Positions 52,019 to 63,666 of a stretch of DNA of 64,000 nt are shown one piece after another. The stretch covers positions 37 to 64,036 of the forward strand of contig JANXXE010000051.1 in assembly GCA_025350815.1 (NCBI GenBank). The letters are read 5' to 3'. The DNA is from Myxococcales bacterium. Lineage in GTDB: Bacteria > Myxococcota_A > Polyangia > Fen-1088. Positions within the stretch are counted from its first letter, which is position 1; each line of letters starts with the position of its first letter. Both the position numbers and the translations under genes were made by a program. The notes beneath the pieces were generated by a model. That model ran no database searches, was not told the origin of the DNA, and was given only the letters and a program-made list of their open reading frames with translations.

Positions 52019-54748
52019 ATGAACCAAAGAATGAAAGCCTTGATCATTGTCGGCTTGTTGTTGGCGCCCTCCGCAGTTTTCGCACAGGGCAGCAACTCGG
52101 GGGCCATCGTCGGAAATGTGATGGACCAGGCGGGAAATCCGGTCAAGGGCGTGAAGATTGTCGTGAAATCCGACACCCAGATCGGTGGGCAGAAGACGGC
52201 CTATACCAACGACGAAGGCTTTTTTCGCATCATCCAGCTAGAGCCCGGTGAGTTCGAGATTCATGCGACGGCGCCTGGTCTTGCGCCCTACGTCCAAAAA
52301 GGCGTGAAGGTCGGCATCAGTGCGGCTGCCGAGATCTCACCCATCATGGAGGTGAAGACCGCCGAGGAGCAGGTCGTCGTGGTCCAGAAGGCACCCGTCA
52401 TCAGCACCACGACGGCCAACGTGAAAGAGGTCTACGACGTCGAGTTCATGGATTCTCTGCCCCTGGCCGCGCGCAACAACGGCCCGGCCAGTATGGCCTT
52501 GTCCGCCTCGGGGGCCATTCGTGGGCAGAAGATGCGCGGCGGTAATGACAACCAGACCGCCTACACCATGGATGGGTTCACCATGCTCGGCCAGTTTCCG
52601 ACGCTGAAGTCAGCCGCGGCCTACGAGATCCAGGGTGCAGGGTACGGCGCCGACAACCCAACGGTGACGGGTGGTGTCGTGAATCTGGTGACGCGGTCGG
52701 GTTCCAATCGTTTTGAGGCGCAGTTCGAGACCTTCGTGCAAAGTCCGCAGCTTCAGTTCTTCCGGGATTCGACTGACTCGCGTCTGGGCGAATCGTTCCT
52801 CCTGCTCAATCCGACTTTATCCGGTCCCATCATCAAGGATCGCCTGTGGTTCGCGGTGAATGCCGAATTCAATGAATTCGTCGTCGGCCGCGACAAGGAT
52901 CCCCTGGGCATTCTTCCGGATCCACCGAATTCTCTGAAGACGGTCATGAAGGGGACGGGGAAAGTGACCTGGCAGGCGAGCCCACGACACAAGGTGTCAC
53001 TGGTATTCAACTGGGACTGGTCCTTCGAGTTCAATCGCAACGGCGGTCTTGGCTATACGGCCGATGCGCAGGAGGATCGCTTGAGTCGTCGCTACTTCGG
53101 CGGCCTAATTTGGGAAGCCTTGCTCACCGATAAGCTGGTTTTTCGCAGCCAGCTTGGCGTGGTCATGTGGCCGGAGCACATCTATCCGCGCCTGTGTGCA
53201 ACCAATCCGAACTGTGACTTTGTGGTTCCTGTCGCCAATACCTACCCGCGCACCGTCTATTACAACAACAGCAATAACCACCAGAGAAATGACACGTCCA
53301 GCATCGAACTTATCAACCGACTGGAGTACTTTCTCGACACGAAGTCGTTCGGCGAGCACGACATCAAGGTCTCGGACACCTTCCGTGCAGAACGTCAGGT
53401 GATGCGGCAGGCCAGGCCGGGGGACCAGTTTCTCCAGTACAACGGCGACATCCCGCTGCAATTGACAGAATACTTTTCAAACGATCCGCGCTACGAAACC
53501 CCGCGCTACGGCTGGAATATTGTTGCGGGGATCACCCAGAAAAACACCACGACGCTGGCCGACACCTGGCGGGCCACGCGCCACCTGACGTTCACGCCCG
53601 CCATCAGCCTGGTGTTTGGACGCGGCGAAAATCAGCGGGGCGATGTCGCGGTCAACACCCTTGCCTGGGCGCCCAGCATCACGGCGGCGTGGGATCCGAC
53701 GCACGACGGGCGCACGGTCATCCGCGGCAGCTTCAGCTCGTACGTCGACGTCGAATTGCTGGACCTGGCGCGCTTCAGTTCGGGCAGTCAGGCGTCGAGA
53801 AACTGCCGATACAACGCGGCCAATGGTCTGTTCGATACAGGTTGCACGTTCTCCGGCGGTCTGTCGTCGAATACCTTTGGCTTGCCGTGTGGACCGACGG
53901 GCGTGGATATCACGGGGAAGAATTGCCGCGAGGCCCTCAGAATTCCTCGGACCTGGGAGTACACCACGGGCGCTGAGCGCGAGGTGGTCGAGGGCGTCGC
54001 ACTGGGATCTGACGTCATCTACCGGCGCTTCATCAACCAGTACGAGTCGCGTGAGACCAACCGCATCTGGAACGCGTCGGGCAGCGAGCTGGACCGAACG
54101 GGCAGCTACAGGAACGGTCGGGCCCAGACCATCATGGATATGGGAACACCTGATGGCGCTCGGCGTTCGTACCTCGGCGTCACGACGTCGCTCAGCAAGC
54201 GTGAAGGTAAGGTCAAGGCCCGCATCGCGTACACGTGGAGCCAGTTGCAGGGCACCGTTTACGGCGGCAACAGCAACCCCTATGGAGACATCACGCCCCG
54301 TGACGTCTATTTGAACGGCCCGTTGTCGGACGATCACCGGCACGAGGTGAAGGCGCTCATGACGTATCAGGCCACTTCATGGCTGAGCCTGGGCGCGACG
54401 GATACTTATTACTCGGGCGTCCCGTACAGTCGGCTGTTTCGCAATACGGAGACGGGCAATTTCGAAGACTACCGCGCGCGCAGGGGCAGCAATCCCGGGA
54501 CGAATATCAACGATCCCAGTGACGATCGGGAACTGAGGCTGCCGGACGTTCAGGATATGGCCGTCCAGGTGCGCGTGAATTTGCGGCCCCTCATTGGCCA
54601 CCGGTTGGAGTTTTTTGCCGACATACTGAACGTGCTGGCGCTGCGGACGATTACAAGTGTGCAGGAACAGGATGGTCCGCAGTTTGGCCAGCTTACGGGC
54701 CGCATGTCGCCGTTCAGGGTGCGCCTCGGCGCCAGCTACAAATACTGA
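52019..54748 (+). CDS. TonB-dependent receptor of the Oar type (CarboxypepD_reg-like N-domain + plug + 22-strand barrel)
   Basis: 909 aa. Signal peptide, CarboxypepD_reg-like domain (AIVGNVMDQAGNPVKGVKIVVKSD...), C-terminal barrel ending ...LGASYKY. Confidence 0.85.
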   Translation: MNQRMKALIIVGLLLAPSAVFAQGSNSGAIVGNVMDQAGNPVKGVKIVVKSDTQIGGQKTAYTNDEGFFRIIQLEPGEFEIHATAPGLAPYVQKGVKVGISAAAEISPIMEVKTAEEQVVVVQKAPVISTTTANVKEVYDVEFMDSLPLAARNNGPASMALSASGAIRGQKMRGGNDNQTAYTMDGFTMLGQFPTLKSAAAYEIQGAGYGADNPTVTGGVVNLVTRSGSNRFEAQFETFVQSPQLQFFRDSTDSRLGESFLLLNPTLSGPIIKDRLWFAVNAEFNEFVVGRDKDPLGILPDPPNSLKTVMKGTGKVTWQASPRHKVSLVFNWDWSFEFNRNGGLGYTADAQEDRLSRRYFGGLIWEALLTDKLVFRSQLGVVMWPEHIYPRLCATNPNCDFVVPVANTYPRTVYYNNSNNHQRNDTSSIELINRLEYFLDTKSFGEHDIKVSDTFRAERQVMRQARPGDQFLQYNGDIPLQLTEYFSNDPRYETPRYGWNIVAGITQKNTTTLADTWRATRHLTFTPAISLVFGRGENQRGDVAVNTLAWAPSITAAWDPTHDGRTVIRGSFSSYVDVELLDLARFSSGSQASRNCRYNAANGLFDTGCTFSGGLSSNTFGLPCGPTGVDITGKNCREALRIPRTWEYTTGAEREVVEGVALGSDVIYRRFINQYESRETNRIWNASGSELDRTGSYRNGRAQTIMDMGTPDGARRSYLGVTTSLSKREGKVKARIAYTWSQLQGTVYGGNSNPYGDITPRDVYLNGPLSDDHRHEVKALMTYQATSWLSLGATDTYYSGVPYSRLFRNTETGNFEDYRARRGSNPGTNINDPSDDRELRLPDVQDMAVQVRVNLRPLIGHRLEFFADILNVLALRTITSVQEQDGPQFGQLTGRMSPFRVRLGASYKY

Positions 54749-54921
54749 TAGCGGGTCGGCGCGTAACCAAGATCGCCCGTCGTGCGGCCTTGGGGATCAT
54801 GGACGCGCGCCTGGCGATGCCCCTGTTGCACAGAGCCATAGATCCCGTGGTTGCCCTGGGTCCGCCCCCGGATCGGGCTGTCGAACGGCCGCCGCGCCTT
54901 GCGCATCGCTACTGGGTGCCG

Positions 54922-55302
54922 ATGCTGGGGAATGCGTTTCGCGTCCTGGAGGCCTTTGGCGACGCCCGCGCTGAGCTGAGCCTTCAGGATGTGACGACAT
55001 CGGCGAAGATAACGAAAACATCCGCGTTCAGGATCCTCTTCACGCTGGGCCAGCTTGGCTACGTGACGAAGGACGCAAGAACGGGCCGGTATCGCCTGGG
55101 CCGTCAGCTGTTCGAGGTGGCCCAGCGAGCCTGCGCGGGGGGCGATGTGGCGCCCGCGGCGCAGCCGCATATGCGCGCCCCTGGCGGTCGTTTCGGCGAG
55201 ACCATCAGCCTGTGCTGGCGGGTCGTCGCCGCGAAAGCGGCAGCGCTATCGGCGCCTGCGAAGGCGGGTCGCAGCCCGGCTCGGGAAGGCCAGCAGAAGT
55301 AG
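54922..55302 (+). CDS. IclR-type HTH domain protein lacking the effector-binding domain (possibly truncated)
   Basis: IclR HTH (LSLQDVTTSAKITKTSAFRILFTLGQLGYVTKDARTGRYRLG) followed by only about 60 aa. The ORF could start at 54790. Confidence 0.45.
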   Translation: MLGNAFRVLEAFGDARAELSLQDVTTSAKITKTSAFRILFTLGQLGYVTKDARTGRYRLGRQLFEVAQRACAGGDVAPAAQPHMRAPGGRFGETISLCWRVVAAKAAALSAPAKAGRSPAREGQQK

Positions 55303-56353: not shown

Positions 56354-56533
56354 CGTACGACCAGCGCGGTGCGGGGATACGTCGAATAGTCGGCGGCGCG
56401 AGTAATCGTTGGGGAGTAATCGTTGGATCGATGTCGCACCTCCGCGTACCACGCCAATGTCCCCGACATTCAGCGGGTCGAGTATGATCAATTCGTGTAT
56501 CCGGGCGATGGGGACGGTCGTAAGAGATCCGCC

Positions 56534-57139
56534 GTGACCGGATCGTACCCATTGCCGCTGGTACAGACGCGCGTGGAGCCGACGGAGGAAGAGCAGATCG
56601 TGGCTCGTTGTCTGGCCGGTGATGCAGAGAGCTTTCGGCCGCTGGTCCACCGCTACCAGCGACTAGCCTTCTCGGTGGCGCTGCGCATGCTGGGGTCGCG
56701 CGCCGACGCCGAGGACGTCACTCAGCAAGGGTTCACGGACGCCTACCGCGCCCTTGACCGGTTCCGTGGCGACGGCCGCAAGAACGCGTTTTCGACGTGG
56801 CTCGTACGCATCGTCGTCAATCGCTCGAAGGACATCCTGAAATCGAAAAAACGGACCGAATCACCCCTTGACGGTGATGTAGCGGGGTCGGACGCGATCT
56901 TTGCCCACCAGCCCCGGTCTCCCGAAGAAACGCTCGTCCTCGCCCAGAGGCGACGTTCTTTGGAGGTCGCCCTGCAGAAGATCCCGCTGAAGTACCGCGA
57001 GGTACTGGTTCTCAAGGATGTCGAGGACCTTGCTTACGAGGACATCCGCGCCATCCTGCGCTTACCGATCACCACGCTCAAGATCCGTGTCGTCAGGGCG
57101 CGGGCGATGATGCGCGAATATTTGGGGGACACGCGATGA
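56534..57139 (+). CDS. ECF (group 4) RNA polymerase sigma factor
   Basis: Region 2 (IVARCLAGDAESFRPLVHRYQRLAFSVALRMLG...DVTQQGF) and region 4 (LKYREVLVLKDVEDLAYEDIRAILRLPITTLKIRVVRAR). A GTG start at 56534 is assumed; the ORF is open from 56423. Confidence 0.75.
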   Translation: MTGSYPLPLVQTRVEPTEEEQIVARCLAGDAESFRPLVHRYQRLAFSVALRMLGSRADAEDVTQQGFTDAYRALDRFRGDGRKNAFSTWLVRIVVNRSKDILKSKKRTESPLDGDVAGSDAIFAHQPRSPEETLVLAQRRRSLEVALQKIPLKYREVLVLKDVEDLAYEDIRAILRLPITTLKIRVVRARAMMREYLGDTR

Positions 57140-57690
57140 CCGCGGAAGACGACAACGAATCCGATGGCATCCGGGGCCTGTCCGACCTGGCCCAGGTCGT
57201 GCCGCCGACCTCGCTGGTCCCCGCCGTCATGCGCAGAATTACCGAGCCCGAGCCCACCGGCCTATGGCACTGGTTGCGCCGCCCGCATTCCTTCGAAATT
57301 CGTTTGTCTCCGTTGGCTGCCGGCGCCCTGATGGCGGCCCTGGGCATGGTCGTGTTTGGCGTCGTGCGCCGCCCGGCAACCGAGTCTCAAGCGTTTATCA
57401 GCCATGCGCCGTCGAACACGATGGGCGACGGCGTCGTGTCGGTGCGGTTCGTGCTGGCCGCCCGGGGGGCGAAACGCGTGGCTATCGCAGGCGACTTCAA
57501 CGCATGGAATCCGGCGGACACCATTTTGGTCGACAGCGACGGGCAGGGGATGTTTGTGGCAACGATCCGGCTTCCGCGCGGGGCGCACGAGTACATGTTC
57601 GTCGTGGACGGGGAATGGGTGACGGATCCCGCCGCGGCCGAACGCCGCCCCGATGGATATGGGCGCACGAACGCTATCTTGCGTCTGTGA
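57136..57690 (+). CDS. membrane anti-sigma factor-like protein with periplasmic CBM48/AMPK-beta glycogen-binding-like domain
   Basis: Overlaps the sigma gene (ATGA). Single TM helix (AAGALMAALGMVVFGVV). C-terminal VSVRFVLAARGAKRVAIAGDFNAWNP...HEYMFVVDGEWVTDP matches the CBM48 core. Confidence 0.68.
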   Translation: MTAEDDNESDGIRGLSDLAQVVPPTSLVPAVMRRITEPEPTGLWHWLRRPHSFEIRLSPLAAGALMAALGMVVFGVVRRPATESQAFISHAPSNTMGDGVVSVRFVLAARGAKRVAIAGDFNAWNPADTILVDSDGQGMFVATIRLPRGAHEYMFVVDGEWVTDPAAAERRPDGYGRTNAILRL

Positions 57691-57716
57691 CCGCGGTACC
57701 GATTACTCTGTAGGTT

Positions 57717-59000
57717 GTGTTTGAAAGGCGTCGGTCCTGGGGACCGCTGGCAGGGCTCTTGGTCGCGTGGGGGGGATCCGCCCACGCCGAGGGCGCCCCG
57801 TCCCTGTCGGCCGACGTCTCGGCTGGCGCAGGGCACGACAGCAACATGTTCTTGTCCCTGTCCCCGGACGCACCGACACCGGCGGCATCGGGATTTTTTG
57901 CGCAAGTTTCGCCCAATCTGCTTGGCGCCGCGGCGCTTTCCAGCTGGCGCTTACAACTGGCCCTTAGCGGGGATTATCGCGGGTCGGTCGCCGCGGGGCA
58001 TCTGTTCTTCGAGGCTGCCGAGGCACGGGTTGTCTTGCCTCCGTTCGGCTTCGCCCGCGTCCAGTTGAGTGGCTCGGGCGGAAGGTTCGATGCCACACGG
58101 GACGCAAATGCCCGATTCTTGTTTGCCGCGGGGGCATCCGAATTGCGCCTCCAGGTGGTCGATTCATTGCGAATCTTGGCCTCGTATCGTGTCGAAATGC
58201 GCTTCTATCCGGGACGCCCGGCCACCGAGGGAGATCGAGATCTCCTTCAAATGGCCGCTCTGCGGGCACCGTTCCGACCGCATCCGTTCTTCGAACTGGC
58301 CCCGTTTGGTTCGTATCTGCATCTGGCCGGCAGGGGCGATGCCGGGGCTGGCGCCGTGCTCGTGCGCGCCCGAACGGGCTTGGATGCGACGGTCATCTGG
58401 TCTCGTGTCACGGCGTCAGTGGCGGGCTGGGTGGGGCGCGTTGATCTGTCAAATGTGGTGAACGCCTGGCAGACGGGGGCGGCCATCGAGATGCGTGTGC
58501 GGGTGTCGCCGCTCGTGGACGCCGTGGCCACCTTTGACTGGGATTCGGGGACGCCCCCTTCGGGGACGGGCCCGCGCGATTTTTCGCGGCGCCTGCTCCT
58601 GCTGGGCCTGCTTGCCCACGATACGACGCGGCCTGCATTGTCGCCGGCCCGGCGGGCGGCAGACCTTCGCCCGCGCTTGCAGGGCCGCCACGTGCACTTT
58701 CGTCTCCGGCTCGCCCGGGCCGCGCAAGTGCGCATCATCGGATCCTGGGATGACTGGGCGGGACAGGGTCGTCTTGTTCCATCGGCTGACGAATCCAACC
58801 TGTGGGAGTTGACCTTGGAATTGCCGCCCGGGGTGCACAGATATCACTTCGTCGTGGACGACCAGCCGGTGCGGCCGCCAGACGCGTCGCGGTACGCGCC
58901 GGATGGCTTCGGGGGCCAGGACGGCGTCGTCGAGGTACAGGGCTCTGTATCCGATGTAGAGGCCGCTCGTACTGTCAACACGGTCGAAGGATCGCGCTGA
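57717..59000 (+). CDS. secreted protein with C-terminal CBM48-like domain
   Basis: 427 aa. Signal peptide (LLVAWGGSAHA). C-terminal VHFRLRLARAAQVRIIGSWDDWAGQ...HRYHFVVDDQPVRPPD. Confidence 0.6.
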   Translation: MFERRRSWGPLAGLLVAWGGSAHAEGAPSLSADVSAGAGHDSNMFLSLSPDAPTPAASGFFAQVSPNLLGAAALSSWRLQLALSGDYRGSVAAGHLFFEAAEARVVLPPFGFARVQLSGSGGRFDATRDANARFLFAAGASELRLQVVDSLRILASYRVEMRFYPGRPATEGDRDLLQMAALRAPFRPHPFFELAPFGSYLHLAGRGDAGAGAVLVRARTGLDATVIWSRVTASVAGWVGRVDLSNVVNAWQTGAAIEMRVRVSPLVDAVATFDWDSGTPPSGTGPRDFSRRLLLLGLLAHDTTRPALSPARRAADLRPRLQGRHVHFRLRLARAAQVRIIGSWDDWAGQGRLVPSADESNLWELTLELPPGVHRYHFVVDDQPVRPPDASRYAPDGFGGQDGVVEVQGSVSDVEAARTVNTVEGSR

Positions 59001-59746
59001 TGGATTCACCACTTGCTGCTCTTGTCCTGCTGGTCGTCGGTGTCGGGACGCCGGCGTTGCCCCAGGATGCTCGTCTTGCGCCCGTGCGGTCGCATCTGAA
59101 CCAGCTACTTGACCAGGCAACGACCGAGGGCCTGCCGACGGACCTGCTGGTCAGCAAGATCCGCGAGGGACTGGCCAAGGGCATCGATGGTTACCGGATT
59201 GATCAGGCGGTCGGCCGTCTCGCCGACAACCTGCACGCCGCGAAAGAATTCGCGACGGCGCGCCGGGGTGGCGCCCCCTCGGGTGGCTTGGTCCGCGCGC
59301 TGGCCGAAGCCAAGCTGGCCGGTGTGGAACTGGTCAGCACCGAGGTTTTGCTGCGCAAAGATCGCCCGGAAGTCGAGGCCACACGCGCGGTGGACGCGCT
59401 GACGGATCTGTCCCTGCGGGGCTATCCGCCGGCGCGGGCGTCGTTGCTCGTGCGCGACGTTCTGCTTCGAGACAGGCCTGCCCTTGAACGGGTTCCGGCC
59501 GCTCTGGAGATCATTCGTAGGGACCAGGCCCTCTCGGCGGCCGAGGCGGTGGACGCCCTGTCCCGCGGGGTGGCCGCCAGCGACTCGCTGCAGTCAGGGT
59601 TGGCACGGACAATCGACGACGAGCGCCGAAGGAACATCAGCAAGGGCCAGGGGAAGGCCAAGGGCGACACCGATTCACCCGGCAGGAATGATCTCGCGCC
59701 CGGGCACTTGCCCAAATCGATTCTCGGACGGGGACGCAAACCCTGA
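59000..59746 (+). CDS. secreted hypothetical protein
   Basis: ATG overlaps the upstream stop (TGATG). Signal-like MDSPLAALVLLVVGVGTPALPQ. Confidence 0.5.
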   Translation: MDSPLAALVLLVVGVGTPALPQDARLAPVRSHLNQLLDQATTEGLPTDLLVSKIREGLAKGIDGYRIDQAVGRLADNLHAAKEFATARRGGAPSGGLVRALAEAKLAGVELVSTEVLLRKDRPEVEATRAVDALTDLSLRGYPPARASLLVRDVLLRDRPALERVPAALEIIRRDQALSAAEAVDALSRGVAASDSLQSGLARTIDDERRRNISKGQGKAKGDTDSPGRNDLAPGHLPKSILGRGRKP

Positions 59747-59807: not shown

Positions 59808-60098
59808 ATGCTCTCCGCCCGTCGACGAACTGCCCGGCAGCGTCGACCCCTGCCGTCCCGACGTGTCCCCGCCCAGTCCCGCCTCACGGTGCCCCGCGCG
59901 GTCGAGGCCCTGCGCCTTTCGCGTCTGGCGCTGTCTGACATCGAAGGGCAGCTGGGTGCGCTGCTGACGGCGCTGCACGATCCAGGTCTTCCCATCGATC
60001 TCGGGGCGCCTGACCGGCTGGCCGGCGTGGCACAACAGGCGCAGACGGCGTTGTCGTCACTATCGGAGCTGCGGCGCTTGTTTCCCTCGCCGCGCTGA
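59808..60098 (+). CDS. small hypothetical protein
   Basis: 96-aa ORF whose 3' two-thirds have high GC3. Preceded by clustered CGTCGAC motifs. Weak call. Confidence 0.25.
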   Translation: MLSARRRTARQRRPLPSRRVPAQSRLTVPRAVEALRLSRLALSDIEGQLGALLTALHDPGLPIDLGAPDRLAGVAQQAQTALSSLSELRRLFPSPR

Positions 60099-60106
60099 CA
60101 CCGGTC

Positions 60107-60874
60107 GTGCCGGACAGCGTCCCCAGTCCCGCCGGCACGCCTCGGCTGACCGAACCGGTCGCTACCTTCTTCGCGGCGACCGCCGTCGCGTCCCTGTGTT
60201 ACTGGCTGGGCACCACCGTTCCGCTGATCGGCGCGAACCTGCACGGCATCATCGCGATTGTCTTCCTGTACGCGCCCGCCGCTGCTGCGCACCTGTTTGG
60301 CCGCCCCTTCGACTACCGCGAAGCCGGCCTGCGCGCCTTTCCCTTGCTGCCCAATCTGGCGGTGGCGGGCCTGGCAATCCTGGCGACCTGGCCGCTGTTT
60401 TTCGGTGGCTTTTTGCTGTTCTACAACGTCAGTTGCGGGCCAGGCGGCGCGAATCTGCTCGGCTCATGGTCGGAGGTCTTCGCCCCCGCCTGCGCCCACT
60501 TTACGGGACTTGCCGGCGCGCACCTGCGCCTGCCTGAAAACTTCCTGCTGCTGGCGGCTTCCCAGGTCATCGCCATCGCCTTGCCCGAGGAATTCTTCTT
60601 CCGTGGCTACCTGCTTGGCCGGTTCGAGGACCGCTGGCCCTCCCGGCGGCGGCTGTGGGGGGCGCCGGTCGGCCGCGCGCTGCTTGCGTCCAGTGTCCTG
60701 TTCGCGCTCGGGCACGTGCTGGTCGACTTTGATCCCTTGCGCCTGGTGGTCTTCTTCCCGGCGCTGGTGTTCGGGTGGATGCGCGCGCGCACGGGCTCGC
60801 TGCTGGCCGGTGCGCTGTTCCACGCGCTGTGCAACCTGCTGTCCGACGTCCTATACGCCAGCTTCTTCAGGTAG
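60107..60874 (+). CDS. CPBP-family (CAAX/Abi) intramembrane metalloprotease
   Basis: 255 aa. EEFFFRGYLLG, FALGHVL and HALCNLL motifs. Confidence 0.8.
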   Translation: MPDSVPSPAGTPRLTEPVATFFAATAVASLCYWLGTTVPLIGANLHGIIAIVFLYAPAAAAHLFGRPFDYREAGLRAFPLLPNLAVAGLAILATWPLFFGGFLLFYNVSCGPGGANLLGSWSEVFAPACAHFTGLAGAHLRLPENFLLLAASQVIAIALPEEFFFRGYLLGRFEDRWPSRRRLWGAPVGRALLASSVLFALGHVLVDFDPLRLVVFFPALVFGWMRARTGSLLAGALFHALCNLLSDVLYASFFR

Positions 60875-61693
60875 CGAGCCGCCGCCGTCATCGCCATGCA
60901 GATGAAGGGCGGCATTGATCGCCCCGGCGTCAAGGCGCGGGCCCTGCCGGTACAGCAGCAACGCGCGTTCAAGGGTGGCCTCCAACTCGCGCAGGTTGCC
61001 CGGCCAGGAATGGGCGCACAGCGCCTCGACGGCGGATGCTTCCAGTTCGATGGCCCGCTTGCGTTCCACCGCGGGGGCGCGTTTCAGATCCTCGCTCGTA
61101 CGCAGGTCCAGTGGCACGTGGGCGGACGCCAGGATCCTGTTGCCCATCCACACCGCGGCGGCGCCGATGTCTTCAGGGCGCTCGCGCAAGGGCGGCAGGC
61201 ACAGGCTGATCCGCGCCAGCCGGTAATAAAGGTCGTGGCGCAAGCGTCCCTCGGCCACGGCGACCGCCGGATCTCGATCGGACAAGGCAATGGCGTTCAC
61301 GACCAAGCGCCGCTGGATGTCCTTGCGCTCGCCGACGCGCCGGCAGCGCCCCGCCTTCAACAGACGCAGCAACGCCTCCTGCGCGCGGGCCGGCAGGGCC
61401 GTCGCCTCTTCGATCAACAAAACACCGCCATTCGCGGCCTCGGCGGCGCCGGGGTGTCGACCGACCCCGCACAGCGCCTCAAGGGCCGCCTCCTCGGGGA
61501 AGCCGACGATGTCCAGGCGAACCAGGGGCCCCTGCGGCGCGATCAACTGCGCCACAGCGCGCGCCAGACCGTCTTTTCCGGTGCCGGGTTCACCCAGTAG
61601 CAGGAAGTTGGTGCGGTAGGGGTGGCCCTGCAACCGTTCGATGGTGTCAAGGACGCGGGTCATCGCCGGGTGGGCCGACGAGATTCGAATCAT
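60851..61693 (-). CDS. sigma-54-interaction-domain AAA+ protein lacking GAFTGA and a DNA-binding domain
   Basis: Walker A GEPGTGKDG, Walker B VLLIEEATAL, sensor-II-like WPGNLRELEATLERALLL. The GAFTGA position reads GVGRHPGAAEA. No C-terminal HTH. Start set at an internal Met to avoid overlap with the NUDIX gene. Confidence 0.65.
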   Translation of the reverse strand: MIRISSAHPAMTRVLDTIERLQGHPYRTNFLLLGEPGTGKDGLARAVAQLIAPQGPLVRLDIVGFPEEAALEALCGVGRHPGAAEAANGGVLLIEEATALPARAQEALLRLLKAGRCRRVGERKDIQRRLVVNAIALSDRDPAVAVAEGRLRHDLYYRLARISLCLPPLRERPEDIGAAAVWMGNRILASAHVPLDLRTSEDLKRAPAVERKRAIELEASAVEALCAHSWPGNLRELEATLERALLLYRQGPRLDAGAINAALHLHGDDGGGSLPEEAGV

Positions 61694-61797
61694 CGCGCCG
61701 ATCCAGCACGCCGCCGCCGGATCGATGGCCTTCAGGGCGCGTCCTCCATCGAGGGACTGCCGGATGCCAGTGGCTTGTCCTTTAGCGGGCGGCACGA

Positions 61798-62220
61798 CTA
61801 GCCGCGCTTGACCCCCAGCAGCAGATCCGTCGTGGCCTGATCCGCGGCTGGAAAGGGATAGCGCTCGAAGTCTTCCGACGAGACCCACAGGTGGTTTGCC
61901 ACCCGCAGTGACCGCGGCTCTTGCCCGGGCAGAAGGTGCGCTTGGTACAGATTCAGCTCGACCGAATAGCCGTCGTACTGGTGGACCCGCTGGGCCATGC
62001 GATCCTTGACGTCGACCTCGACACCGACCCGCTCGCGGATTTCTCGGCGCAGCGCCACTTCGTTGGTCTCGCCCGGCTCAACCTTGCCACCCGGGAACTC
62101 CCACAGGCCGGGTAGCACCGCGATCGAACGGCGCTGGGTAATCAAATAGCGCCCCTCTCTTTCGATGATGGCGGCGACGACGCATATCTGCTTGGGCATG
62201 GGCAGCGCCGGACTATACAT
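61798..62220 (-). CDS. NUDIX hydrolase (MutT-like)
   Basis: 140 aa. Nudix box GLWEFPGGKVEPGETNEVALRREIRERVGV. Confidence 0.85.
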   Translation of the reverse strand: MYSPALPMPKQICVVAAIIEREGRYLITQRRSIAVLPGLWEFPGGKVEPGETNEVALRREIRERVGVEVDVKDRMAQRVHQYDGYSVELNLYQAHLLPGQEPRSLRVANHLWVSSEDFERYPFPAADQATTDLLLGVKRG

Positions 62221-62865: not shown

Positions 62866-63666
62866 CTAGTTGACGAATCCGCAGGCCCAGCGAAGCTGGT
62901 TGGAACCGTTCCGCCTGGTGCAGACGCAGCCCTCTCGGTTTCCGGCGGAGCAGACTTCGTTCTCGGTGGTGCAGTCTTTCCCATTCGGGTTGTTCGGGCA
63001 CATCATCAAGGTGCCGTCGTTATCGCAGCGCCACATGGAGTTGATACACAGGCAGTTGACCGCGCTTCCGCCGTCACCGATGTTGCTAACGCATTGGTTC
63101 GGCACGTTGGCACCGCCGCAGACCTTGCCTGAGGGCATGGCGGGGCAGGCAGGGATTGTCGCCGCCGCGTCCGCAGGGGCGCCCCCATCGGGGATCTCGC
63201 AGATGTTGCTGCAGAACAGCGTTCCCCCGCTACAGATGCAATGGCTCATGCCCGTGTTGCCACGGCCGCAGGGAGTGGCGCAGTTCGCTGTGCACTTCTG
63301 GCCGGCGCGGCAGATCTCGGCGGCGGCATCAGGCAGCCTGGCATCGATGATCGTCGCGGGAGCATCGGCAGCGGCATCGATCTGGGCGCCGGTGGAGCCA
63401 GCCGTCCCACCGGATCCTGCTGTCCCGGTGGCGCCTGCGGTCCCCGTGGAACCCGCTGTTCCCGTGGCACCTGCCGTCCCTGTGGAACCCCCGGTGCCGG
63501 AAGAGCCGGCCGTGCCGGCGCTATCGGCGGTGCCGACGCCGCCGTCGCCGTTGATATCTCCGCCGTCTCCCGTGCTCTTGGTCGCGTCGGACCCGCAGCC
63601 ATGAACCGCCAGCGCCACCGCCAGCGAAGCGCCAACCACCGAGAAGAGAAAGGGTTTCCGTATCAT
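62866..63666 (-). CDS. secreted Cys-rich lipoprotein with Gly/Thr/Ala hexapeptide repeats
   Basis: 266 aa. SD AAGGAG 7 nt upstream. Lipobox AVHGC. (TGTAGS/A)n run, then about 26 Cys. Confidence 0.6.
   Translation of the reverse strand: MIRKPFLFSVVGASLAVALAVHGCGSDATKSTGDGGDINGDGGVGTADSAGTAGSSGTGGSTGTAGATGTAGSTGTAGATGTAGSGGTAGSTGAQIDAAADAPATIIDARLPDAAAEICRAGQKCTANCATPCGRGNTGMSHCICSGGTLFCSNICEIPDGGAPADAAATIPACPAMPSGKVCGGANVPNQCVSNIGDGGSAVNCLCINSMWRCDNDGTLMMCPNNPNGKDCTTENEVCSAGNREGCVCTRRNGSNQLRWACGFVN

Follow-up and report, generated by a model that had tools for sequence, protein, structure and literature searches.

An ECF sigma factor module with a CBM48-type domain on its anti-sigma-like membrane protein in Myxococcales and other uncultured bacteria

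Pairs formed by an extracytoplasmic function (ECF) sigma factor and its anti-sigma factor are a major route of signalling in bacteria, and the input signal is unknown for most groups of these pairs. What such a pair may sense is the question raised by a locus in a 64,000-nucleotide stretch of DNA from a Myxococcales bacterium (assembly GCA_025350815.1, contig JANXXE010000051.1, positions 37 to 64,036 of the forward strand). This whole stretch is referred to as the window, and its numbering is used throughout. Four co-oriented genes on the plus strand (56534-59746, from the list of open reading frames (ORFs) and the sequence) encode an ECF sigma factor, an anti-sigma-like protein that crosses the membrane once, and two exported proteins, which will be called protein 3 and protein 4. 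A reading made from the sequence alone had proposed that the anti-sigma factor and protein 3 both carry carbohydrate-binding modules (CBMs) of family 48 and that the system senses an alpha-glucan or another polysaccharide. Here, we examine the domain assignments, the predicted structures and the gene order of this locus in other genomes. We hold, with about even confidence, that the locus is a member of a widespread envelope-signalling module in which a periplasmic glycan sensor controls an ECF sigma factor.

The four-gene unit and its conserved core

The product of gene 1 matches the Pfam models Sigma70_r2 (PF04542, E 4.9e-19) and Sigma70_r4_2 (PF08281, E 1.5e-8) as well as the NCBIfam model for ECF sigma-70 factors, TIGR02937, at 87.1 bits against a cutoff of 42.9, and none of the equivalog NCBIfam models reached its cutoff on this protein. 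By these matches gene 1 encodes an ECF (group IV) sigma-70 factor, and the proposal of an ECF sigma gene with an adjoining gene for a single-pass anti-sigma-like protein is supported. The reading frame is open from a TTG codon at 56423 to 57139. The likely true start is GTG 56534, because an (M/V)TG codon is conserved across 18 aligned orthologs, and this start gives a protein of about 201 amino acids.

A promoter-like motif, GTGTATCC-N15-TCGTA, ends 11 nt before this probable start and contains a -35 element GYATCC and a -10 element CGTA. When the regions upstream of the sigma genes of the Myxococcota clade were aligned, GTG(Y)ATCC-N15-TCGTA was found to be conserved in register. Each of 16 distinct Myxococcota loci has exactly one GYATCC-N15-TCGTA, which is upstream of sigma, and elsewhere in the 88 loci that were fetched there is almost none. 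In the 64-kb window, a search that allowed up to 2 mismatches recovered the sigma promoter and nothing else. An autoregulated promoter of the ECF type would fit both the spacing and the CGTA -10 element, and the short distance between promoter and start suggests that the mRNA may be leaderless or nearly so. In one genome a second exact copy of GYATCC-N15-TCGTA was observed (L004 8846-8871, which is L016 7831-7856 of the same genome); it lies at the 3' end of the protein 3 gene and within it, ~30 nt before the start of protein 4, which suggests that protein 4 is there also expressed separately in dependence on sigma.

The genes of the unit are tightly packed. The start of gene 2 lies within the stop of gene 1 (ATGA) and the start of gene 4 lies within the stop of gene 3 (TGATG). 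The sequence-only reading had described overlapping junctions along the operon; these two are present as described, whereas genes 2 and 3 do not overlap and are separated by 26 nt. A scan of the four-gene unit found no sigma70-like promoter inside it, and terminator-like hairpins within it are not more frequent than in shuffled sequence. The sequence therefore makes it likely that the four genes are co-transcribed.

The unit recurs well beyond the window. More than 350 relatives of the gene 2 protein, almost all of them unnamed, are present in metagenome protein catalogues, and the four genes are found in identical order with unrelated flanks on five independent Myxococcota contigs. Conservation of the unit had been proposed as a check, and its recurrence with different flanks means that the arrangement is not due to chance. 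When one genome was scanned for each species, gene 2 relatives were identified in 218 genomes, all of which are metagenome-assembled genomes (MAGs). Locus counts were taken from the best 80 of these 218 genomes, with ORFs classified by phmmer and by profiles, and the denominators are the loci with enough upstream DNA (77) or enough downstream DNA (71). The lineages among the best 80 include Myxococcota/Polyangia, Gemmatimonadota, Nitrospira, Vicinamibacteria (Acidobacteriota), Verrucomicrobiota, other members of the Planctomycetes-Verrucomicrobia-Chlamydiae group, Desulfobacterota, Fibrobacteraceae and others.

An ECF sigma gene stands directly upstream of the gene 2 relative in 77/77 loci, and the junction between the two is a 4-nt overlap in 57 of 72 loci; the ATGA overlap is kept in most of the Myxococcota loci. 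A protein 4-like gene adjoins in 68/71 loci across phyla, and a second CBM48 protein is encoded in 33/71. The sigma factor, the CBM48 membrane protein and protein 4 are thus the constant core, and all three are encoded together in MAGs from at least seven phyla. A barrel-type protein 3, which is described below, completes the four-gene form, and this full form is confined to the Myxococcota clade, where it is found in 13/17 loci. One Gemmatimonadota MAG (JBGPOE01) has two separate loci (L068 and L074), each with a CBM48 anti-sigma relative, which indicates that the module can occur as paralogs.

The CBM48 domains and the partner proteins

The gene 2 protein consists of a cytoplasmic N-terminus of ~55 amino acids, one transmembrane helix, a linker of ~20 residues and a CBM; a hydropathy scan detected a single hydrophobic segment, which begins at about residue 54. 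The CBM matches PF16561 (AMPK1_CBM) over residues 110-182 (E 1.8e-12, 47.7 bits, cutoff 26.8) and PF02922 (CBM_48) with E 3.3e-5 (24.6 bits, cutoff 22.4). In protein 3, PF16561 is matched over residues 335-408 (E 2.1e-10, 41.1 bits), and the PF02922 score of 18.8 bits is under its cutoff. The claim that both proteins carry domains of the CBM48 family is therefore upheld by PF16561, which is above its cutoff in each, and the motifs that had been quoted in its support are present as written (AGDFNAWN...HEYMFVVDGEWVTDP in the anti-sigma protein and IGSWDDWAG...HRYHFVVDDQPVRPPD in protein 3). A profile of the anti-sigma family searched against the Protein Data Bank (PDB) matched the CBMs of AMPK beta best (beta2 CBM 4y0g, E 1.5e-11), followed by the CBM48 modules of pullulanase, SEX4 and GlgB. 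Feruloyl esterase entries with such a module are also among the PDB relatives, which shows that CBM48 is not restricted to alpha-glucans. The fold is supported by sequence in both proteins and, in protein 3, also by the structure model, in which residues 320-407 form seven beta-strands with a block-mean predicted local distance difference test score (pLDDT) of about 64-90; the barrel of the same protein dominates the fold search.

In AMPK beta1 the residues that contact cyclodextrin are Trp100, Trp133, Lys126, Leu146 and Asn150 (PMC9788615). The equivalent positions were compared in 77 anti-sigma CBMs from several phyla and in 22 CBMs of the protein 3 family (Table 1). The anti-sigma CBM has residues of the same kind at four of the five positions. 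The retention of Trp100, Trp133 and Asn150 across phyla makes a carbohydrate ligand plausible for this domain, and it is plausible from these residues that the anti-sigma CBM48 senses a glycan. The remaining position is Lys126, which in AMPK hydrogen-bonds the sugar. Its systematic loss argues against assuming specificity for alpha-1,4-glucans. The proposal of polysaccharide sensing can thus be retained as far as a carbohydrate is concerned, but its alpha-glucan part is not supported, since Lys126 is replaced and the protein 3 CBM is without Trp133 and Asn150.

Table 1. Residues at positions equivalent to the cyclodextrin contacts of AMPK beta1
AMPK beta1 position	Anti-sigma CBMs	Protein 3 family CBMs
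Trp100	Trp 77/77	Trp 22/22
Lys126	Met 65/77, Gln 8/77; no Lys	Arg or His
Trp133	Trp 72/77	Trp 0/22
Leu146	Phe 75/77	Phe 22/22
Asn150	Asn 77/77	Asp 21/22

Protein 3 had been described as a secreted protein. It does have a signal peptide, but the structure model and Foldseek predict an outer-membrane barrel plus a CBM rather than a freely secreted product. The AlphaFold2 model, built with 22 family members, has a pLDDT of 82.4 (>90 over most of the barrel) and a predicted template modelling score (pTM) of 0.65. A signal-peptide helix (residues 1-24) is followed by 14 long antiparallel strands and a beta-rich C-terminal domain. The first Foldseek match in the PDB is OmpG (2iwv, E 4.6e-9, TM-score 0.65 normalised to the target), with a sequence identity of ~10% that marks the likeness as one of fold only, and further matches are the barrels of CymA, chitoporin, PgaA and BcsC. 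OmpG is a 14-strand oligosaccharide porin and CymA is the cyclodextrin channel of Klebsiella oxytoca. Protein 3 is accordingly predicted by its model to be a 14-strand, OmpG-like outer-membrane barrel with a C-terminal CBM48 domain. In barrels with an even number of strands both termini face the periplasm, which would place the CBM of protein 3 under the outer membrane and in the same compartment as the CBM of the anti-sigma protein. From the model, this CBM is probably periplasmic.

The barrel is a feature of one clade. When the profile of the Myxococcota protein 3 barrel was compared with the long second-CBM proteins of other phyla, the best match (E 0.066) was not significant, so the combination of barrel and CBM48 is established for the Myxococcota clade only. 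Several of the second CBM proteins of other phyla are ~120-145 amino acids long and have a lipobox-like N-terminal Cys. Taking the two forms together, the second CBM48 domain is probably tethered to the outer membrane in many loci. CBM-only second proteins of ~120-145 amino acids were seen in nine loci of Nitrospira and Vicinamibacteria (L025, L033, L040, L054, L070, L076, L077, L080 and L083). A lipobox-like Cys is present in the five N-termini that were inspected (L025, L033, L040, L080 and, from Desulfobacteraceae, L032). The CBM-only second proteins keep the Trp/Trp/Asn/Met set of site residues, as in the anti-sigma protein.

Protein 4 is the partner found at nearly all of the loci, which, like the barrel of protein 3, the sequence-only reading had not recognised. 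Its signal peptide is followed by a domain of helical repeats and then by a basic tail that is disordered, and its AlphaFold2 model (pLDDT 88.8, pTM 0.78) has ten helices in residues 24-220. A fold search against the PDB returned mostly designed helical repeats and mTERF, with a best E of 0.35, and there are no matches in Pfam or NCBIfam. A profile search of 1.84 billion cluster representatives found 1309 relatives at E<=1e-3, 239 of them at E<=1e-10. Nearly all of the best 150 family members listed are stand-alone proteins or fragments of <300 amino acids. Relatives in other phyla share a GLP...KVREGLAKGV motif, the signal peptide and a low-complexity tail. The near-universal linkage makes it likely that protein 4 is a periplasmic co-regulator or the first output of the system.

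Proposed control of the sigma factor and alternative explanations

Class I anti-sigma domains (ASDs) bind sigma4 with helices 1-3 and sigma regions 2.1/2.2 with helix 4, and helix 4 blocks the contact of sigma with core RNA polymerase; for class II anti-sigma factors, of which CnrY is an example, two short helices are enough to inhibit (PMC7406223). An alignment profile of the N-termini of the gene 2 family (A4) matches RsiW (5wuq_C, E 1.1e-5) and RseA (1or7_C, E 0.005) across helices 1-4. By this profile, the N-terminus of the family is homologous to the class I ASDs of RsiW and RseA. Relatives outside the Myxococcota have longer N-termini that open with a motif such as IDPRVHRVLDGEL, and this IDPRVHRVLDGEL-type opening looks like helix 1 of class I ASDs. 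The number of residues before the transmembrane segment has a median of 57 in Myxococcota versus 78 in other phyla. In A4, the window protein and the rest of its Myxococcota clade have nothing aligned before the end of helix 3 and continue from there through helix 4, with SLVPAVMRRI of the window protein paired with ADFTANVMAKL of RsiW. According to the alignment, the Myxococcota clade keeps only the helix-4 segment, which is homologous to the sigma2-binding helix of RsiW and RseA.

Two motifs mark what has been retained. In the cytoplasmic motif GLSDLAQVVPPTSLVPAVMRRITEPEP, L18, P24, M32 and E37 are invariant in the clade, and the juxtamembrane motif WHWLRRPHSFEIRLSP, with an almost invariant W-x-W-L-R-R-P pattern, precedes the transmembrane helix; W44, W46 and S58 are also invariant in the clade. 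In the gene 2 family alignment, the cytoplasmic motif is as highly conserved as the CBM. Helices 1-2, including the helix-1 motif (xxHRxLDGEL), are absent from the window protein in the N-terminal scan and in A4, and the zinc-binding HxxxCxxC motif is absent from all 80 relatives that were scanned. Sub-threshold zf-HC2 matches, found in 4/7 non-Myxococcota relatives, cover helix 1 only. On the window protein no anti-sigma model of Pfam or NCBIfam gave a significant match; NF052375 matched weakly (E 0.0013), far below its cutoff. An anti-sigma N-terminus without sigma-binding features had been named as grounds for rejecting the proposal, and this applies by half: the zinc finger and helices 1-2 are missing, but a helix-4 segment homologous to RsiW and RseA is found by profile. 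The near-invariance of the retained motifs, the tandem duplication of the helix-4 motif in some relatives and the conserved ATGA overlap suggest a functional sigma-binding cytoplasmic segment, and we infer that the truncated N-terminus may still be a sigma-binding element. The tandem form, GL..LREVTPPPSLVP.VMRRIAEPAP..FWSWLRKPR, was observed in P0002, P0003, P0004, P0007 and at locus L008 7001-7852, where a helix-4-like motif is repeated two or three times before the transmembrane segment. One such anti-sigma protein might hold several sigma molecules.

A possible mechanism can be outlined. At rest, the cytoplasmic N-terminus of the anti-sigma protein, which in this clade is the helix-4 segment, would hold the sigma factor at the membrane, and the periplasmic CBM48 would bind a glycan through its platform of two tryptophans. 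The glycan could be an oligosaccharide that enters through the pore of protein 3 or an envelope polymer. Gain or loss of glycan binding, modulated by protein 4 and by the CBM of protein 3, would expose the anti-sigma protein to regulated proteolysis, and it would be removed as its homologues RsiW and RseA are. The freed sigma factor would then transcribe its own operon from the GYATCC-N16-CGTA promoter together with further targets, and a second CBM tethered to the outer membrane would modulate sensing where it is present. Sigma binding by the truncated N-terminus, glycan binding and proteolytic release are steps that we infer. A more far-reaching version is conceivable but, in our judgement, unlikely: the module would be a hitherto undescribed trans-envelope device independent of TonB, in which the barrel CBM48, the anti-sigma CBM48 and protein 4 monitor one periplasmic glycan, be it an imported oligosaccharide or a polymer of the envelope, the anti-sigma element consists of helix 4 only, and the core is a stress or nutrient pathway common to Myxococcota, Gemmatimonadota, Acidobacteriota, Nitrospirota, Verrucomicrobiota and others.

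Several observations weigh against a glycan sensor of this kind. The Lys126 equivalent is never Lys in the 77 anti-sigma CBMs, and the CBM of protein 3 has no Trp133 equivalent (0/22) and has Asp in place of Asn150. Protein 4, the most conserved partner, has no function assignable from Pfam, NCBIfam or the PDB fold search. On the independent Myxococcota contigs no constant neighbour encoding a carbohydrate-active enzyme (CAZyme) or a sugar transporter was found; glycoside hydrolase (GH) genes of families GH6, GH3 or GH75 lie near individual loci and vary by locus. The module is also present in Nitrospira, which are lithoautotrophic and nitrite-oxidising and fit poorly with the sensing of food polysaccharides. 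The lack of a constant CAZyme neighbour and the occurrence in Nitrospira argue against the sensing of nutrient polysaccharides as a general role. Finally, the anti-sigma protein of the window is without helices 1-2, the part that binds sigma4, in the N-terminal scan and in A4, and any sequestration of sigma by this protein is for this reason putative.

These points can be read in other ways. The CBM48-like domains may be protein-interaction modules rather than lectins, and the system a relay or a sensor of envelope integrity, in which the outer-membrane-tethered CBM and/or protein 4 would bind the anti-sigma CBM until a disturbance of the outer membrane or of the periplasmic spacing breaks the contact and releases sigma, by analogy perhaps with RcsF-IgaA or FecA-FecR signalling. 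A second and probably outer-membrane-anchored CBM in 33/71 loci (as a barrel fusion in Myxococcota and elsewhere as proteins of 120-145 amino acids, several with a lipobox-like Cys), the near-universal presence (68/71) of a protein 4 without features of an enzyme or a lectin, and the loss of two canonical sugar contacts from the CBM of protein 3 all agree with such a relay, as do the absence of conserved carbohydrate-active neighbours on the independent Myxococcota contigs and the presence of the module in Nitrospira. However, across at least seven phyla the anti-sigma CBM shows hardly any variation at Asn150 and at the surface tryptophans that stack on sugar, the pattern to be expected where a carbohydrate site has been kept. 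A second CBM protein is missing from more than half of the loci, so that contact between two CBMs cannot be the general mechanism, and the short linkers (~20 amino acids on the inner-membrane side, ~15 on the outer-membrane side) would make direct contact across the periplasm geometrically tight. We consider a relay somewhat unlikely. That both CBM48 domains bind imported alpha-1,4/1,6-glucan, with protein 3 as an alpha-glucan or maltodextrin channel and glucan-utilisation genes elsewhere activated by the sigma factor, much as might be imagined from RsgI/SigI or the SusC-linked ECF systems of Bacteroidota, is very unlikely. The closest sequence relatives of the CBM are indeed glycogen and starch modules (AMPK beta, pullulanase, SEX4 and GlgB), the closest barrel folds include the sugar channels OmpG, CymA and chitoporin, and a GH6, GH3 or GH75 gene is near individual loci. 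Yet the neighbouring glycosidases differ from locus to locus and none of them acts on alpha-glucans, Lys126 is systematically replaced, CBM48 is not limited to alpha-glucans, the barrel partner is restricted to one clade and the module occurs in Nitrospira.

A further explanation concerns the sigma factor itself. The CBM48 membrane protein of Myxococcota may no longer be an anti-sigma factor; it would then be a sigma-dependent envelope protein, for example a glycan anchor that works with the protein 3 barrel and protein 4, and sigma would be controlled in some other way. This would account for the short Myxococcota N-terminus (median 57 versus 78 amino acids), for the absent helix-1 motif, and for the lack of significant matches to zf-HC2 and other anti-sigma models beyond the weak NF052375 match. 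It is harder to reconcile with the nearly invariant helix-4 and juxtamembrane motifs and with the tandem duplication or triplication of the helix-4 motif in some relatives, features that indicate selection for a binding role in the cytoplasm. Most Myxococcota loci also keep the ATGA overlap between this gene and that of sigma, and class II CnrY inhibits with two short helices (PMC7406223). We regard the loss of anti-sigma function as quite unlikely. Of these readings, we favour control of the ECF sigma factor by a periplasmic glycan sensor, at about even confidence.

Known systems, surrounding genes and significance

RsiW/SigW and RseA/SigE are class I anti-sigma systems in which release is by regulated intramembrane proteolysis. 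The module shares with them the order of an ECF sigma gene followed by the gene for a single-pass anti-sigma protein, the N-terminal profile match and the common helix-4 'VM..I' motif. It differs in that the extracytoplasmic part is a predicted CBM48 beta-sandwich, there are no zinc ligands, helices 1-2 are missing in the window clade, and the partners are a helical-repeat protein and a barrel-CBM protein rather than RseB/DegS or PrsW.

The sequence-only reading had stated that no sigma/anti-sigma pair of this design was known, which is too strong, as both RsgI/SigI (PMC10328401) and ECF52 (PMC5826349) carry CBMs. In Clostridium thermocellum, RsgI is an anti-sigma factor with an extracytoplasmic CBM, and it has been proposed that polysaccharide binding leads to proteolytic release of SigI (PMC10328401, PMC6582324). 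Three hallmarks define this system (PMC10328401): a SigI-type sigma factor, the N-terminal domain of RsgI and, in the periplasm, an autoproteolytic domain that has an Asn-Pro site. All that the two systems have in common is the principle that a membrane anti-sigma factor carries a CBM as its sensor. In the module the sigma factor is of the ECF type, the host is a diderm, one partner is predicted to lie in the outer membrane and protein 4 is constant. No RsgI_N domain was matched by Pfam on the gene 2 protein, and the linker between the transmembrane helix and the CBM, at only ~20 amino acids, leaves no room for an autoproteolytic Asn-Pro domain. Membership of the RsgI family was rejected because the sigma factor is of the ECF type and both domains are absent. 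In the literature searched, no RsgI sensor was described as carrying a CBM48. ECF52 proteins of Actinobacteria, such as SCO4117, contain a carbohydrate-binding module, and proteolytic release upon a carbohydrate signal has been proposed for them (PMC5826349). As in the module, an ECF sigma factor, an anti-sigma-like element, a transmembrane segment and an extracytoplasmic CBM make up one signalling unit. In contrast, ECF52, which is found only in Actinobacteria, is a single fusion protein in which there are also a zinc finger and a proline-rich linker and the CBM is a different one (smart00776), while sigma and anti-sigma are separate here and the CBM belongs to family 48.

Other comparisons concern the outer membrane. 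As in FecA-FecR-FecI, the genes for an ECF sigma factor and an anti-sigma protein of the inner membrane stand together with one for an outer-membrane barrel that bears an additional domain in the periplasm, so that a trans-envelope relay is possible. Unlike FecA, protein 3 is a 14-strand, porin-like barrel and not a 22-strand TonB-dependent one, and the periplasmic domains are CBM48-like. Pfam gave no TonB-dependent receptor, plug, STN or FecR matches on protein 3 or the anti-sigma protein, and there is no TonB box; membership of the FecIRA type was rejected because there is no TonB-dependent transducer and no FecR domain. Protein 3 resembles OmpA in having an N-terminal barrel and a C-terminal periplasmic domain, which in OmpA is glycan-binding, but its own domain is CBM48-like and not the peptidoglycan-binding OmpA_C. 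Among the sequence matches to the anti-sigma domain the CBM of AMPK beta ranks first, and the anti-sigma domain keeps the equivalents of Trp100, Trp133 and Asn150; unlike the AMPK module, the domains described here are bacterial and periplasmic, are joined to an anti-sigma protein or a barrel, and have Met in place of Lys126 in the anti-sigma protein.

In a literature search, no publication that ties CBM48 or AMPK1_CBM to an anti-sigma factor was found, and a bare entry in a catalogue of ECF groups is possible. The main text of the ECF re-classification paper (PMC7826278) makes no mention of glycogen, AMPK or CBM. A CBM as the sensor of a sigma regulator is thus already known from RsgI/SigI and ECF52. 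New are the CBM48 sensor in diderms, its two partners (the barrel-CBM48 protein of the outer membrane and the helical-repeat protein that is almost always present) and, in this clade, an anti-sigma element that has only helix 4.

The features of the locus are collected in Table 2. The intergenic region that contains the sigma promoter is shared with a divergent lipoprotein gene, whose product has an LYLGC lipobox, a Gly-rich linker and Cys-rich and Pro-rich regions; in NCBIfam it gave only a sub-threshold match, to an acidic double-disulfide repeat. Homologs (phmmer E 1e-71 to 1e-107) are encoded directly upstream of sigma on the opposite strand in 9 other Myxococcota loci (L005, L008, L010, L011, L013 and L017-L020; L006 duplicates L005), and in L007 a homolog is nearby on the plus strand. 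This recurrent divergent position suggests that the lipoprotein gene may be a fifth member of the module or a gene of its regulon. Just downstream of the four genes, a 96-amino-acid ORF (59808-60098) precedes a gene for an Rce1-like (CPBP/CAAX) intramembrane protease (60107-60874, plus strand). The CPBP/CAAX superfamily includes PrsW, the site-1 protease of RsiW. Both genes were excluded as members of the module, as they are not conserved beside it in other genomes, and the linkage of the protease may be coincidental. The wider neighbourhood encodes a 909-amino-acid outer-membrane-type protein with CarboxypepD_reg (52019-54748, plus strand), an IclR-type regulator (54790-55302, plus strand), a sigma-54 activator without an obvious receiver domain (60851-61888, minus strand) and a second lipoprotein that is Gly/Thr-rich and Cys-rich (62866-63666, minus strand). 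None of these four genes is conserved beside the module in other genomes.

Table 2. Features of the locus in window coordinates
Feature	Position	Strand	Basis
Divergent Cys-rich lipoprotein gene, 345 aa	55316..56353	-	from MFMTRLRLL, LYLGC lipobox
ECF-type promoter-like motif	56495..56522	+	in-register conservation upstream of sigma genes
ECF sigma gene	56534..57139	+	Sigma70_r2, Sigma70_r4_2, TIGR02937
Anti-sigma-like single-pass membrane protein, 184 aa	57136..57690	+	CBM48 match, ATGA overlap, upstream sigma
Cytoplasmic motif GLSDLAQVVPPTSLVPAVMRRITEPEP, remnant of ASD helix 3 end and helix 4	57175..57255	+	clade invariance, alignment A4
Predicted transmembrane helix, ~residues 58-80	57307..57375	+	hydropathy scan
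Anti-sigma periplasmic CBM48/AMPK1_CBM, residues 99-184	57430..57687	+	PF16561, PF02922, PDB profile match
Protein 3, 427 aa	57717..59000	+	AlphaFold2 model, Foldseek, PF16561, family alignment A2
Predicted protein 3 14-strand barrel, residues 29-304	57801-58628	+	AlphaFold2 model
Protein 3 CBM48-like domain, residues 320-408	58674-58940	+	model, PF16561
Protein 4, 248 aa	59000..59746	+	AlphaFold2 model, ORF
Protein 4 all-alpha helical-repeat domain, residues 24-220	59069-59659	+	AlphaFold2 model

For a class of regulators whose inputs are rarely defined, the module provides a concrete and testable candidate for an input domain, namely a lectin-type CBM48 fold whose aromatic platform is intact, and its partners and promoter are defined. 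It occurs across phyla of soil and sediment of which almost no members have been cultured and little is understood, and its protein 4 belongs to a family of >1000 clusters that has no match in Pfam or NCBIfam and whose model resembles no solved structure. The window clade is a natural experiment in which the anti-sigma domain has been cut down to helix 4, and it may reveal how little can suffice for the control of a sigma factor. Should the ligand be a glycan, the use of a CBM as the sensor on an anti-sigma factor would extend from the Gram-positive cellulolytic clostridia, where it is represented by RsgI, to diderm bacteria, with the addition of an outer-membrane component.

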